From an uncultured Methanosarcinaceae archaeon (GTDB lineage: Archaea > Halobacteriota > Methanosarcinia > Methanosarcinales > Methanosarcinaceae), in contig CAWJYV010000008.1 in NCBI GenBank assembly GCA_963847185.1, positions 768,001 through 832,000 on the forward strand: a stretch of DNA of 64,000 bases, given 5' to 3'. The notes beneath the pieces were generated by a model. It saw nothing but the letters and a program-made list of their open reading frames with translations, had not been told where the DNA came from and did not search any database. The translations under genes and the position numbers were made by a program. This document shows positions 21,844 through 26,876 of the stretch, piece after piece. How positions within the stretch are numbered: position 1 is the stretch's first letter; the number at the start of each line of letters is the position of its first letter.

Positions 21844-22923
21844 TTGAAAATGGATAAAGGCGGAAACCTTAGAGAAATAAAGTCCCTTCTTGAAAAATTC
21901 ACAAACGCTCATGGAATTTCAGGCTCAGAAGATGATATCCGGGAACTTCTTGAAATGGAACTTGAACCTTACGTTGACAATATCCGAAAAGATGTCATGG
22001 GAAACCTTATAGCTGTCAAAAAAGGGGAAGGCCCTTCTATTATGCTGGCTGCTCATATGGACGAAATTGGGCTTATGGTGAGGTATATCGATGACAATGG
22101 TTTCCTCCGTTTTGTTGGGATCGGAGGGTGGTTCGATCAAACTCTTCTCAACCAGAGAGTTATAGTCCACGGAAAGAAGGGTTCCATTCCCGGAGTTATT
22201 GGATCCAAGCCTCCTCATGTAATGAAAGACGAAGACAGGAAAAAGCCTGTGAAACTGGAAGATATGTTTATTGACATTGGAGCAAAGGACAGGGAGGATG
22301 CTGAGAATCTAGGAATTGAAATAGGTACAGAGGCTTCTATTGACAGGGAATTTGTGTCCCTGGCAAATGGGAAGGTGACTTCCAAGGCATTTGACGATCG
22401 TGCAGGAATTGTGATCCTTATTGAAGTTATGAAGCGGCTCTCTAAACATAAGATTGAAGCTAACATTTATGCCGTAGGTACAGTTCAGGAAGAGGTAGGA
22501 CTCAAGGGAGCGAAAACCTGCGCTTTTGGAATTTGTCCGGTCGTTGCTCTTGCCCTTGATACCACCATTCCAGGAGATCATCCCGGTATTAGCAAAACCG
22601 ATTCGTCCCTTGAACTTGGGAAAGGACCTGTAATAACTGTAGCCGATGCATCGGGAAGAGGTCTTATAGCTCATCCTCAGATCCTCAAATGGCTTAAAGA
22701 AACGGCTGCCGAAAACAAGATCCCGTATCAACTGGGAGTTGGTTCGGGCGGCACTACTGATGCAACTTCAATACACCTCACAAAGGAAGGCATTCCTACA
22801 GGTACTGTCAGCATAGCTACTAGATATATTCACTCTCCTGTTGAAGTTCTGGACATTGCAGACATAGAATCCTGTGTTTCCCTGATTGTAAAGGCAATAG
22901 AAAATGTAAAAAGGTATTTCTAA
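21844..22923 (+). CDS. M42 family metalloaminopeptidase (TET/FrvX-like)
   Basis: AAHMDEIG, KAFDDRAG, QEEVG and RYIHS motifs. Confidence 0.93.
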   Translation: MKMDKGGNLREIKSLLEKFTNAHGISGSEDDIRELLEMELEPYVDNIRKDVMGNLIAVKKGEGPSIMLAAHMDEIGLMVRYIDDNGFLRFVGIGGWFDQTLLNQRVIVHGKKGSIPGVIGSKPPHVMKDEDRKKPVKLEDMFIDIGAKDREDAENLGIEIGTEASIDREFVSLANGKVTSKAFDDRAGIVILIEVMKRLSKHKIEANIYAVGTVQEEVGLKGAKTCAFGICPVVALALDTTIPGDHPGISKTDSSLELGKGPVITVADASGRGLIAHPQILKWLKETAAENKIPYQLGVGSGGTTDATSIHLTKEGIPTGTVSIATRYIHSPVEVLDIADIESCVSLIVKAIENVKRYF

Positions 22924-23311
22924 ATTTTTATAGGAATTTTCTAAAAATATTTCCTTGAAATTTCGAGAAAACTCTATTTTGAGGAAATCTCCGTTTTTTA
23001 TTTCTATTTTTTCTTCCAATTAAAGAATCATACAGCTATAATTACAGAATGAAAGCTTATCTCTTTCTTAAAAACCAGATCTATTGTTAACTGGAAACTA
23101 AAAATACTAGGTCTACCTATTGAAAAGGAGTTTCAAATATAGCCAGCACTGTTTCGTGAATTTTCTGAAAGAGTCGGGCTTCTAAGAAAAGATTTATCAT
23201 GTATAATAAGCATGATTCTGTAAAATAGGTGCAAATAGTATAAAATAGTTTTATATTATTCCCCTGTTTTACAAAATGAAGTTACCATAATAGAAAAAAA
23301 ACTGAGGGATT

Positions 23312-24799
23312 ATATTATTCGAAAATATCCGCTTTCTGGATACCACTTTGAGAGATGGTGAACAAACACCCGGAGTAGCCCTGACAAGAGAAAAGAAGCT
23401 CTTAATTGCACGGGCCCTTGATGAATTGGGGGTCTCGGTAATAGAAGCAGGCTCTGCTATAACTTCCGAGGGTGAAAGAGAATCGATCAAGGCTGTCGCA
23501 AATGCAGGTTTAGATGCCGAAATCTGCAGTTACTGCAGGATTGTGAAGATGGACGTTGACCACGCCCTTGAATGCGACGTTGATTCTATTCACCTTGTAT
23601 CGCCGGTCTCGGACCTGCATATCAGAACAAAGATCAAAAAGGATAGAGAGGCAGTAAGGCAGATCGTAGCCGAAGTAACGGAGTATGCCAAGGACCACGG
23701 CCTTATTGTAGAACTGAGTGGTGAAGATGCTTCTCGAGCAGATCTTGAGTTCTTAAAGGCTCTGTATGCGGACGGAATAGATGCAGGAGCTGACAGGTTA
23801 TGTTTCTGCGATACTGTAGGCCTTCTGGTGCCTGAAAGAACCACCGAGATTTTCCGGGACCTATCGGCTTCCCTTAAGGCTCCTATCAGTATTCATTGCC
23901 ACAACGATTTCGGTTTAGCAACTGCAAACACGGTTGCTGCCCTTGCGGCAGGAGCAAAGCAGGCTCACGTAACTGTAAACGGCTTAGGTGAAAGAGCAGG
24001 AAATGCAGCTCTGGAAGAAGTGGTCATGAATCTTGAATGGCTTTACAAGTATGACACCGGGATTAAGCATGAGATGCTTTACCGTACTTCAAGGCTTGTA
24101 AGCCGGCTTACAGGAGTTCCCGTATCCCCTAATAAGGCTCTTGTTGGAGGAAATGCGTTTACCCACGAAGCAGGTATTCATGTCCATGGCCTTCTCGCCG
24201 ACAAGGCAACCTACGAGCCAATGAGCCCTGAGTATATAGGAAGGCAGCGTCAGATCGTACTTGGTAAACATGCCGGAAGGAGCTCGATTACCCTTGCTTT
24301 AAAGGAAATGGGGCTTTCCGCTGATGACGCCCAAACAGAGGAGATTTTCATCAGGGTTAAGCAAATGGGTGACCAGGGTAAGCATATAACTGATGCTGAT
24401 CTGCAGACAATAGCAGAAACCGTGCTTGATATCTATAAAGAACCCCTGGTAAAATTAGAGGAATTTACCATTGTATCCGGAAATCGGGTGACTCCAACCG
24501 CTTCCATAAAGCTCAGTGTGAAAGACAAAGTGATAGTACAGGCCGGAATTGGGAATGGGCCTGTAGATGCTGTAATCAATTCTATCCGAAGAGCTGTAAG
24601 TTCCTGTGCGGAAGATATCATCCTTGAAGAATATCACGTAGACTCCATCACCGGCGGAACTGATGCCCTTGTAGAAGTAAGGGTAAAACTTTCCAAGGAC
24701 GGAAAGGTAATCACCGCAAGTGGAGCCAGAACGGACATCATCATGGCCTCTGTAGAAGCTGTGATGAACGGTATGAACCGCCTCATCCGAGTAGAGTGA
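23312..24799 (+). CDS. cimA: (R)-citramalate synthase (LeuA family); start probably non-canonical, upstream of TTG 23348
   Basis: DTTLRDGEQ, HCHND, GERAGNA, HEAGIH and LeuA-type regulatory domain; next to ilvBN/ilvC. The frame stays open upstream to TGA at 23303. Confidence 0.85.
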   Translation: MLFENIRFLDTTLRDGEQTPGVALTREKKLLIARALDELGVSVIEAGSAITSEGERESIKAVANAGLDAEICSYCRIVKMDVDHALECDVDSIHLVSPVSDLHIRTKIKKDREAVRQIVAEVTEYAKDHGLIVELSGEDASRADLEFLKALYADGIDAGADRLCFCDTVGLLVPERTTEIFRDLSASLKAPISIHCHNDFGLATANTVAALAAGAKQAHVTVNGLGERAGNAALEEVVMNLEWLYKYDTGIKHEMLYRTSRLVSRLTGVPVSPNKALVGGNAFTHEAGIHVHGLLADKATYEPMSPEYIGRQRQIVLGKHAGRSSITLALKEMGLSADDAQTEEIFIRVKQMGDQGKHITDADLQTIAETVLDIYKEPLVKLEEFTIVSGNRVTPTASIKLSVKDKVIVQAGIGNGPVDAVINSIRRAVSSCAEDIILEEYHVDSITGGTDALVEVRVKLSKDGKVITASGARTDIIMASVEAVMNGMNRLIRVE

Positions 24800-25109: not shown

Positions 25110-26876
25110 ATGACAACCGGGTCAACAGAAAAAGTTAATGGCGCAAGGGCTTTGATAATGTCCCTGGAAGAAGAAAGGGTTGACACCCTCTTCGGATATC
25201 CGGGTGGGCAGATCATTCCCTTTTACAACGAACTCTATGATTCAAGTCTGCGCCACATACTTGTACGCCATGAACAGGCAGCAGCTCATGCTGCGGACGG
25301 GTACGCCCGTGCTACTGGAAAGACCGGGGTCTGCGTTTCCACCTCAGGTCCCGGAGCAACTAACCTGGTAACAGGCATTGCTACCGCATATATGGACTCT
25401 GTACCTATCGTAGCCTTAACAGGCCAGGTTCCGAATTTCCTTATCGGTAATGATGCTTTCCAGGAAGCAGATATTACGGGAATTACCCTGCCCATTACCA
25501 AGCACAACTACCTCGTACAGGATGCTAAAGAACTCCCCAGAATTGTAAAAGAAGCCTTCCATATTGCTTCTACCGGAAGGCCTGGCCCGGTATTAATTGA
25601 CCTTCCAAAAGACGTTCAGAACGCGGAGATTGATTTTTATTACCCTGACAAGGTAGAGCTGAGAGGGTATAAGCCTACCTATAAGGGCAATATCCAGCAG
25701 ATCAAACGCGCTGCCGAGGAAATTGCAAACTCCTCAATGCCTATAATTTACGCAGGCGGTGGAGTGGTCAGTTCTAATGCTAGCGGTGAACTTGTGGAAC
25801 TGGCAGAAACTATCAATGCTCCGGTTACGACGACCCTTCTGGGAATAAGCTCGATTCCAACACAGCATCCACTGTATGTCGGGATGCTCGGAATGCACGG
25901 GACCAAATACGCAAACTACGCAATTCAAGAATCAGATCTTATTATTGCTGTGGGTGCAAGGTTTGATGACCGCGTGACCGGTAAACTCGAGTCTTTTGCT
26001 CCAAATGCCAGAATTATCCATATTGACGTCGACCCTGCTGAAATCTCCAAGAACGTAAAGGTTCACATTCCAATTGTCGGGGATGCAAAACAGGTACTCA
26101 AATCCCTGAATAAATATGTCAAGCACTGTAAATCCGGGGCATGGATTGAAAAAATAAATCAGTGGAAGAAAGAGTTTCCTCTAACCTACAGGAAGGGAAC
26201 TCAGAATGTAGTGATGCCTCAGTTTGTTATTGAGCAGATATCCGAAGTCTGTAAGGATGCAATCATAGTCACGGAAGTCGGACAGCACCAGATGTGGACA
26301 GCTCAGTTCTTCAAGTTCACAGATCCCCGGACTTTCCTTACATCAGGTGGGCTCGGCACAATGGGCTACGGATTCCCTGCAGCTATAGGAGCCAAGGTCG
26401 GAAGGCCGGATAAAACTGTTATTAACGTTGCAGGAGACGGATCTTTCCAGATGAACTCTCAGGAACTAGCTACTGTGGTTCAGAATGACATTCCTGTCGT
26501 TTCGGTGATCCTGAATAACGGTTACCTTGGAATGGTCAGACAGTGGCAGGAGCTTTTCTATGACAGGAGATATTCACACACCTTCATCAAGGGCAGTGTC
26601 GATTTCGTAAAGCTGGCAGAGGCCTACGGAGCTCTTGGAATACGTGTGGACAGGCCGTCCGAAGTCAGGCCTGCAATCGAGGAAGCTGTCAGGTCAGGTA
26701 GGCCGGCAGTTGTCGAAGTAATTGTTGAATGTGAAGCAAATGTCTATCCAATGGTGCCTGCAGGAGCTGCAATCAATGAGATTCTTGACATTGAAGAACA
26801 TGCAGACAGTCCCTGCGACATGCCTGATTTACGCAGTGCAAGAGCCGATGGAGTTCTTGACCTGGAGGAACACTGA
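25110..26876 (+). CDS. ilvB: Acetolactate synthase large subunit, copy 1 (C-terminally extended)
   Basis: [26 protein letters not shown] and GDGSFQM..NN ThDP motif. Confidence 0.95.

Follow-up and report, generated by a model that had tools for sequence, protein, structure and literature searches.

A cassette common to archaeal cimA and leuA and a possible +1 frameshift at a single isoleucine or leucine codon

The +1 frameshift site of prfB consists of a Shine-Dalgarno (SD)-like element, 3 nt, the codon CUU (in the run CUU_U) and then a codon that is slow in the ribosomal A site. Known +1 frameshifts sense a release factor (prfB) or polyamines (antizyme), and shifts of the Ty3 type need no re-pairing. 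Bacterial attenuation relies on alternative RNA hairpins together with a transcription terminator. The autoregulatory AUU start codon of infC (IF3) follows a normal SD at normal spacing. We know of no attenuation or T-box system in archaea. In yeast Ty1 and Ty3, and in the hungry-codon shifts of Gallant, a slow A-site sense codon with limiting aminoacyl-tRNA promotes the +1 move (Atkins et al. 2016, PMC5009743). According to a 2021 review (PMC8211752), the only cellular programmed frameshift demonstrated in Archaea is the −1 shift of fucA1 in Saccharolobus solfataricus, and an archaeal +1 frameshift has been suggested only for a haloarchaeal virus. Here we analyse the 5′ end of cimA in a 64,000-nt stretch of DNA (the window) from an uncultured Methanosarcinaceae archaeon (GenBank assembly GCA_963847185.1, contig CAWJYV010000008.1, positions 768,001 to 832,000 of the forward strand), together with the 5′ end of the paralogous leuA. 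Both genes carry the same cassette, and we propose, at what we would call an even chance, that a programmed +1 frameshift at a "hungry" isoleucine or leucine codon explains their expression.

After a TGA at 23303–23305 the enzyme frame of cimA reads GGG, ATT (23309), ATA (23312), TTA (23315), TTC GAA AAT ATC CGC TTT, CTG (23336) GAT ACC ACT, TTG (23348) and AGA GAT GGT GAA CAA (coordinates are those of the window, and all features named lie on its forward strand). A preliminary description of this DNA had reported no canonical in-frame start between the TGA and TTG 23348, and the window indeed has no ATG, GTG or TTG in this frame there. TTG 23348–23350 is the first canonical start and ORF (open reading frame) prediction therefore begins cimA at this codon, within the catalytic DTTLRDGEQ motif. 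Twenty-two of 23 Methanosarcina genomes have the same cimA 5′ end, TGA GGG ATT (A/G)TA TTA TT(C/T) GAA AA(C/T), and in none of these 22 is there a canonical enzyme-frame start 5′ of the DTTLRDGEQ motif. In the frame one base upstream, the leader (−1) frame, the only cassette-adjacent start in these 22 genomes is CTG, or TTG in L022. The exception among the 23, L017, carries a one-base insertion (GAG GCG ATT). The possibility raised earlier of a miscalled ATG was checked against RNA-derived contigs of related strains, which cross 23298–23343 without inserted or deleted letters; sequencing error and RNA-level correction were rejected, given these indel-free contigs and the identical letters in 22 of 23 genomes. 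Across this genome comparison, a cimA without a canonical start codon is confirmed as real and conserved in Methanosarcina.

The true N-terminus is placed upstream of the annotated MRDGEQ: relatives conserve (G)I(I/V)LFENIRFLDTT, and wobble variation in the enzyme frame is first seen at TTC 23318–23320, so that their alignment does hold a coding signal without ATG upstream of RDGEQ, as had been anticipated. The deposited proteins are inconsistent at this end. Among the 46 closest database proteins (P0001–P0046), 34 start at M/LRDGEQ, three at M/LDTTLRDGEQ and seven at a downstream ATG, and the remaining two begin MALTREKK and MILFENIRF (P0039); the statement in the preliminary description that Methanosarcina CimA is annotated from MRDGEQ is thus borne out. 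The Methanosarcina deposits have at least five different N-termini, with lengths of 453–496 aa, and are named variously 2-isopropylmalate synthase or citramalate synthase. We reject TTG 23348, the start of most entries, which is not conserved as TTG: it is TTA in L009 and L015, CTC in L017 and CTG, CTA or CTC in other families. Two further start codons that had been suggested fare no better, as ATA 23312 is GTA in 4 of the 23 Methanosarcina genomes and ACA, GCA, GCT or GTT elsewhere, and CTG 23336 varies synonymously (CTT, CTA, TTG, TTA).

We aligned 151 distinct cimA and 104 distinct leuA 5′ regions. A cassette was found in the frame one base upstream of the enzyme frame, consisting of AGGGAT, 3 nt, an XTT codon and then an isoleucine codon (cimA) or a leucine codon (leuA), and it is present at 107 of the 151 cimA and 91 of the 104 leuA loci. 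In the window, AGGGAT (23305–23310) is an internal SD-like element, AGGUGAU minus one U, and would act either as the frameshift stimulator or as the SD for 23314. It is followed by the leader-frame spacer codon TAT (23311–23313), which is variable (Y-R-Y) in cimA, by ATT (23314–23316), the proposed P-site (shift) codon XTT or else a near-cognate AUU start 3 nt after AGGGAT, and by ATT (23317–23319), the proposed A-site "hungry" isoleucine sensor codon of the leader frame. The TGA at 23303–23305 that closes the enzyme frame upstream is a by-product of (N)TG and A(GG), and is CGA, AGA, GGA or GAA in other lineages.

The sensor codon encodes isoleucine in 99 of 107 cimA cassettes (ATT 95, ATC 4) and leucine in all 91 leuA cassettes (TTA 88, CTA 3). 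The earlier observation of isoleucine codons next to an SD-like element thus describes a conserved, non-random feature. The link to isoleucine status that was drawn from it is still the most coherent functional reading; however, conservation falls on the isoleucine codons ATT ATT at 23314–23319, which belong to the leader frame, and not on the ATT ATA of the enzyme frame. In this genome ATT is the commonest isoleucine codon, and TTA (10%) and CTA (6%) are both rare among leucine codons. The P codon of the 107 cimA cassettes is ATT in 68, TTT in 37 and CTT in 2; at the loci inspected it is ATT where no upstream SD and ATG exist and TTT where they do. In leuA the spacer is CGN with a free third base (CGA 45, CGT 30, CGC 11, CGG 1), and P-site re-pairing in the +1 frame would be good (TTT_T/C in 66 of 91, CTT_T/C in 23 of 91).

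Entropy was profiled over 88 cimA and 80 leuA distinct segments. AGGGAT and TT plus ATT (cimA) or TT plus TTA (leuA) are essentially invariant, including the enzyme-frame wobble bases (0.09 bit for the last G of GGG and for the A of TTA); the enzyme-frame wobble positions from TTC onward have about 0.8–1.9 bits. Within the leuA cassette a single base is hypervariable (1.52 bits), namely the third of the leader-frame CGN, which is a second position in the enzyme frame. This invariance and wobble pattern therefore point to constraint on the RNA and the upstream frame, not on enzyme residues. A sensor ATT in the leader frame would explain why the enzyme-frame leucine codon that it overlaps is frozen as TTA. 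The 16S rRNA 3′ end of this genome is GGAUCACCUCCU, with which AGGGAU(U/C) is predicted to form a duplex with one bulged rRNA base at about −9.0 to −11.0 kcal/mol; AGGGAT of the window gives −9.4 kcal/mol, in the top ~2% of random 14-mers. The 12-base 16S 3′-end sequence GGATCACCTCCT has one copy outside the three rRNA operons of this genome, at G000:C10:117757.

A leader ORF leads into the cassette in most loci. Canonical leader starts occur at 90 of the 91 leuA and 72 of the 107 cimA cassettes. Within 45 nt upstream in leuA, 149 ATGs are in phase with AGG, 45 are in the enzyme frame and one is in the third frame; the eight codons 5′ of AGG are free of stops in the AGG phase at 89 of 91 loci, against 9 and 32 of 91 in the other two frames. 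The distance from the leuA ATG to AGG is 1, 3, 4, 6 or 7 codons, and every time a whole number of codons, so that the ATG is in phase. As read in the alignments, SDs such as AGGTGAT stand 3–6 nt 5′ of the leader ATGs. The leuA of this genome (L031, at G000:C7:6340-6460, outside the window) has the SD AGATGAT and the leader ATG AAT GTA ACA ACT GAA AGA AGG GAT CGA TTT TTA CAT, running on to TAA; the enzyme frame beneath it reads GAA GGG ATC GAT TTT TAC ATC GAA CCT ATG, and the sensor codon is leucine. In Methanoperedens leuA, an in-frame ATG before CGA GGG comes and goes through a T/C change that is silent in the leader frame.

Outside Methanosarcinaceae a good SD and ATG open a short leader in the upstream frame of cimA as well. 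The ANME-2a leader is AGGTGAT-N5-ATG GCA AGA AGG GAT CGT TTT ATT TGT CAA TAG, that of Methanoperedens is ATG AAC AGA AGG GAT TGC TTT ATT TAA, and that of Methanothrix is ATG AAT GCG TGG GAT CGC TTT ATT. L281, L285 and L289 have AGGAAGTGA-N5-GTG AGG GAT CGC TTT ATT TAA, with a true SD 5 nt 5′ of GTG. The N-terminal part of the leader is free to vary and its end is fixed, as ...RDR(F/L)L in leuA and ...RD(R/C/Y)(F/I)I in cimA. The leader stop lies 0 to 23 codons beyond the cassette, varying widely among lineages. In the window the leader-frame CTG at 23302–23304, adjoining AGG, is a candidate start of a 5-codon leader, and the leader frame ends at TGA 23359–23361 (+20 relative to the D codon), so unshifted ribosomes would make a 19-residue peptide counted from CTG 23302. 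The position of this CTG is occupied by GTG in Methanolobus, Methanohalophilus, Methanosalsum and Methanomethylovorans, by ATG in L046 and L234, and by TTG in L022, L241, L247 and L282, and in several species CTG is the sole near-start codon in the open leader frame.

The enzyme frame lacks a canonical start at 85 of the 107 cassette-bearing cimA loci and 41 of the 91 leuA loci, the latter including Methanolobus, Methanomethylovorans and most Methanoperedens. Methanosarcina leuA has an in-frame ATG, but L124, L159, L160, L167, L169 and L170 have CTG or CTA in its place. Upstream of that ATG we read, by eye, synonymous enzyme-frame changes (TAC/TAT, GAA/GAG, CCC/CCT), and these argue that enzyme-frame translation begins immediately 3′ of the cassette. 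By these patterns a ribosome thus appears to read one frame into the cassette and the next frame out of it. Three distinct ANME-2 proteins from separate sources (P0106, P0122 and P0124, on 4, 5 and 1 contigs) start MRKD(R/G)FFVNRDIRF as one ordinary ORF; P0122 and P0124 are 85–86% identical to P0106. Their unfused relatives encode both halves, a leader ending ...RRDRF followed by I and an enzyme frame FVNRDIRF, so the N-termini of the P0106 type are exactly what a +1 shift at TTT|ATT, with TTT as the P codon, would be predicted to yield. One metagenome scan for the DNA of the fused P0106-type genes gave unfused relatives only. A 1-nt deletion in L059 joins GTG AGG GG. to the enzyme frame, and L155 is a full-length leuA with an ordinary SD and GTG ahead of ...FYIEP. 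Residues across the cassette are evidently, by this sequence comparison, not critical to the enzyme. L162, a further candidate for a natural leuA leader fusion, was set aside since a stop ends its enzyme frame early, at base 799 of that locus. L155 and L162, leuA copies 93–94% identical to Methanosarcina LeuA, sit on contigs whose bins are CPR bacteria (Saccharibacteria, Paceibacterota). The DNA upstream of these two copies is A-rich and unrelated, and a GGAGG SD there precedes an ordinary in-frame start; mis-binning, transfer or a mobile copy could account for this.

The mechanism that we propose is as follows. A short leader would be translated in the frame one base upstream of the cimA enzyme frame. 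When charged tRNA-Ile is scarce, slow decoding of the A-site isoleucine codon at 23317–23319 would allow the ribosome to move forward one base, helped by pairing of the SD-like AGGGAT with the 16S 3′ end just behind it, and the shifted ribosome would then read TTC GAA AAT ATC and so on to make CimA. When isoleucine is plentiful the ribosome would keep the leader frame and terminate at 23359–23361. The cimA enzyme frame, counted from the first codon after the proposed shift, TTC, to the stop, extends over 23318–24799, with wobble variation from its first codon and its end taken from the ORF list. In leuA the same cassette would place a leucine codon (TTA or CTA) in the A site. Given these isoleucine and leucine sensor codons, the first committed enzymes of isoleucine and leucine synthesis would each be tuned by their own end product. 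Two sub-models can be drawn for initiation in Methanosarcina. The leader may start at CTG 23302; alternatively AGGGAT may serve as the SD for initiation on AUU 23314, the shift codon itself, where the 3-nt spacing after GAT falls within the range of true starts here (3–6 nt). A +1 shift is still needed under both.

Ribosome slippage itself, the exact shift codon and the amino-acid response are inferred from sequence. In its full form the proposal states that CimA and LeuA are made only when the leader ribosome stalls on a single isoleucine or leucine codon and slips +1, in an RF2-like loop that would sense charged tRNA. It would extend over Methanosarcinales and at least five further families of the phylum and be the first such cellular shift in archaea, with the cimA leader of Methanosarcinaceae so reduced that initiation may itself fall on the shift codon. 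We hold this fuller version tentatively, at slightly less than an even chance.

Motifs and homologs were surveyed beyond the two genes. In this genome 406 sites fit [AG]GGGAT-N3-NTT, seven of them precede a long ORF, and only cimA and leuA have no motif-adjacent start; no wider regulon was found, the cassette standing at a start-less ORF only at these two genes in this genome. Two other paralogs of the family, L032 and L033, have ordinary SD and ATG starts. Of 401 genomes sampled across the phylum, 92 have the exact leuA 16-mer; they come from 28 of 121 genera and include 51 of the 52 genomes of the home family. The reversed pattern, used as a control, gave about five of the matches listed. 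Of 18 distant matches that were fetched, six are true leuA cassettes with leaders, from five further families, and 12 are chance matches inside unrelated ORFs.

Variant arrangements were also seen at cimA. The ANME-2c-like loci (L275, L277, L278, L280, L283, L284, L287, L290 and L291) read AGA GG(G/A) ATT (C/A)(G/A)C AT(T/C/A) ACA GAC... and have no XTT-ATT cassette; no ATG, GTG or TTG was seen in the ~100 nt upstream of their DTT motif, and an enzyme-frame ATT, ATC or ATA stands 7 nt after GAGG. In Methanoregula and relatives (L074–L079, L083, L087–L090) the arrangement is GGTGAT-N5-ATG A GTG, in which AGGGAT is absent and TTT ATT is kept. There the ATG opens a 7-codon ORF (ATG AGT GAG TGT TTT ATT TGT TAA) and the GTG four bases later opens the enzyme frame, so that one SD is common to two starts one frame apart. 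A Methanobacteriaceae metagenome-assembled genome (MAG; L080) has a cimA-type cassette, AGGAGGT-N6-ATG AAA GCG GGG GAT CGT TTT ATT GGA CGT TAG, and this gene could have been transferred or could lie on a contaminating contig; at the other Methanobacterium loci a plain SD precedes a TTG or ATG start, with (M/L)KARIFDTT.

Several observations weigh against the frameshift proposal. The genomes compared are related, so that counts over them exaggerate the independent support. In cimA, re-pairing following a +1 slip is poor (UUU_A, AUU_A), with TTT_A in 37 of 107 and ATT_A in 68 of 107 cassettes; a Ty3-like shift without re-pairing would be needed in cimA, because UUU or AUU followed by A cannot re-pair. 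The SD-like duplex is merely moderate, and no 3′ stimulatory or conserved RNA structure was found (alifold −0.7 and −2.0 kcal/mol; z-scores −1.0 to +1.0). The identity of the sensor codon is partly dictated by the enzyme-frame residues F-Y and L-F and is therefore not fully independent evidence. L044, L058 and L068 have an in-frame ATG ahead of GGG ATY or GAA GGG ATY, as do the MKEGIDLF-type proteins, so the enzyme frame can be read through the cassette. In Methanosarcina and Methanococcoides the sole cassette-adjacent leader start is CTG, with no upstream SD, and in several species the leader frame opens merely three codons before it. Some non-AUG initiation, on CTG 23302 or AUU 23314, is thus still required in Methanosarcina even with a frameshift. 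The 1-nt insertion of L017 places TGA in the leader phase and so contradicts initiation at the NTG, unless it is an assembly error (the MAG is 81% complete); it breaks the NTG phase and leaves the spacing from SD to ATT intact. Finally, the ANME-2c-like cimA genes suggest that near-cognate initiation probably occurs somewhere in this family.

The main rival is a near-cognate start of the enzyme frame at ATT 23309 (ATC or ATT after GGG in relatives, and in leuA), with the leader as a separate overlapping regulatory upstream ORF (uORF); we consider it unlikely. NCBI annotates the gene in this way in Methanococcoides, Methanolobus, Methanohalophilus and one Methanosarcinaceae MAG, and proteins of sister genera begin M(A/I/T/V)LFEN... 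where the DNA has ATT, as the MILFENIRF of P0039 does in the closest set. ATY follows GGG in nearly all cimA and leuA loci, L029 has ATG at that codon, and Methanomethylovorans, with GTC or GTT instead, gained an in-frame TTG three codons later. The ANME-2c-like genes, without a canonical start in any frame, also fit this rival, with which L017 is still compatible. The bases of the ATY, however, also belong to the SD-like GAU, and ATT 23309 falls within the predicted anti-SD duplex at a distance of 1 nt from the GAGG core, whereas spacings in this genome peak at 7–8 nt. GAGGGA is for this reason poorly positioned to serve ATT 23309 as the ribosome-binding site that it had been taken for; there is no other SD in range, and the leader SD of leuA lies about 25–30 nt upstream. 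A start at ATT alone would leave unexplained the frozen wobble bases of GGG and TTA, the conserved N of NTG and the in-phase SD and ATG leaders, and the natural leader-fused proteins would require a frameshift mutation three codons into the supposed ORF. A ribosome translating the overlapping leader, or stalled on it, would presumably cover ATT 23309, so that starvation would lower enzyme synthesis, the wrong direction for feedback. It is the outgroups and leuA, which indicate a leader ORF and a +1 frameshift, that lead us away from the simple non-AUG initiation in the enzyme frame first suggested for this gene.

If GAGGGAT were instead a genuine ribosome-binding site, initiation might fall on TTA 23315 (7 nt after GAGG) or TTC 23318 (10 nt). 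This spacing would fit the genome optimum, TTA is almost invariant, TTG stands at the TTA codon in M. alaskense (L038) and at the next codon in Methanomethylovorans, canonical and at the same spacing, and the ANME-2c-like genes have their enzyme-frame ATT, ATC or ATA 7 nt after GAGG. We nevertheless regard such a start as improbable, as UUA and UUC differ from AUG at two bases and would pair with the initiator anticodon through one; we know of no precedent for initiation on either, the equivalent leuA codon is TTT, and the in-phase SD and ATG leaders of the outgroups and of leuA would go unexplained. A downstream start at TTG 23348 (MRDGEQ) or CTG 23336 (MDTT...), with the upstream conservation as a non-coding regulatory element, is more improbable still. 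Most of the closest database entries are deposited with one of these two starts, and TTG is the first canonical codon. Both codons change elsewhere, as described above, 23318–23347 has enzyme-frame wobble periodicity and the conserved ENIRFLDTT, and the truncation would cut residues before DTT that all relatives with ordinary starts keep, for example in the (M/L)KARIFDTT of Methanobacterium.

Other sites and mechanisms were considered. Two were rejected: read-through of the TGA would meet TAA and TAG further upstream in the same frame with no start between, and the A8 run at 23295–23302, a candidate transcriptional slippage site, is not conserved in other species. A shift at AGG_G (tRNA-Arg onto GGG) was ranked below XTT, as the sequence is AGG_A in L124, L159, L160 and L065 and as the leader-frame CGN wobble of leuA and the P0106-type fusions place the shift further downstream. 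The second ATT could be the shift site in some cimA lineages, with the A site occupied by a stop or rare codon (ATT_TGA, ATT_TAA, ATT_CGA), but leuA has no counterpart.

The cimA of the window lies between an M42 aminopeptidase gene (21844–22923) and ilvB (25110–26876). Its product belongs to the archaeal isopropylmalate/citramalate synthase subfamily (NCBIfam NF002085, 631 bits) and scores below the cut-off of the LeuA equivalog NF002086 (504.7 < 532), which the second paralog, L031 (46% identical), exceeds (543.9). Orthologs carry the NCBI/UniRef name (R)-citramalate synthase, and precomputed Pfam domains on them are PF00682, PF08502 and PF22617; the substrate specificity of the window's CimA is a prediction from sequence. 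The promoter block at 23253–23272, a TATA-like ATATTATT and then CCCCTGTTTTAC, is conserved in 31 aligned distinct Methanosarcina upstream regions, and the TATA-like block stands ~50 nt 5′ of CTG 23302. Standard archaeal spacing from TATA to transcription start would place the latter near 23275–23285 and implies an A-rich, SD-less 5′ untranslated region of about 20–30 nt; no transcript 5′ end could be read from the RNA-derived contigs of related strains. The mini-ORF ATG AAG TTA CCA TAA at 23276–23290 is in the cimA frame and is followed by in-frame TAA, TAG and TGA. It had been noted near the predicted transcription start, but it is not conserved: it occurs in 2 of the 31 distinct Methanosarcina sequences, with a different ATG-ORF there in three others, and it is probably irrelevant. 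The promoter stretch at 23216–23276 is AT-rich and near-palindromic and has sub-threshold matches to Rfam miRNA families on both strands (E 0.12–0.76), which are almost certainly due to chance.

In the literature searched, including the portions consulted of PMC8211752, PMC5009743, PMC3711429 and PMC11456600, we found no account of archaeal cimA or leuA with a frameshift, a leader peptide or a non-AUG start; the supplementary tables of the M. mazei Ribo-seq study (PMC11456600), which may list a leader ORF, lie outside that search. Nor did this literature yield a description of a hungry-codon shift used as a sensor of the amino acid of its own pathway. If the proposal is right, the availability of one particular amino acid, sensed at a single codon, would add a third natural type of sensor to programmed +1 frameshifting, and the shift would be the first cellular one of the +1 kind in Archaea. 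It would give archaea a route for feeding amino-acid status back onto biosynthesis, and in hundreds of genomes two central metabolic genes would have their annotation corrected.

The proposed arrangement parallels that of prfB, with a short upstream ORF, a main ORF in the +1 frame, a slow A-site codon as sensor and an autoregulatory logic. In-phase ATG leaders enter the cassette one base upstream of the enzyme frame, an invariant SD-like AGGGAT stands 3 nt before the XUU P codon, and CUU_U or UUU_U in leuA resembles the CUU_U of prfB. It differs in that the sensor would be a sense codon for isoleucine or leucine instead of a stop, and that the genes encode archaeal biosynthetic enzymes. Furthermore, the slipped pairing in cimA (UUA) is poor, and the Methanosarcinaceae leader has about five codons without a canonical start or SD. 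The Ty elements use a constitutively rare tRNA to set a fixed ratio, whereas here the codon would be a physiological sensor of the amino acid of its own pathway. Bacterial leu/ilv attenuation likewise has a short leader ORF with codons of the regulating amino acid 5′ of a branched-chain gene; here the leader does not precede the enzyme ORF but overlaps it in a different frame, and there are neither conserved terminator and antiterminator hairpins nor an Rfam family matching the cassette or leader region. With infC, the analogy implicit in the preliminary description and behind the NCBI-style annotation, the locus has in common a conserved non-AUG (AUU) codon at the gene start with a regulatory purpose, but ATT 23309 abuts the SD-like element and the conservation extends to a second frame. 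The fucA1 shift is −1, occurs on an A-AAA-AAT heptamer in one species and has no known regulatory logic; the shift proposed here would be +1, widespread and common to two paralogous genes.

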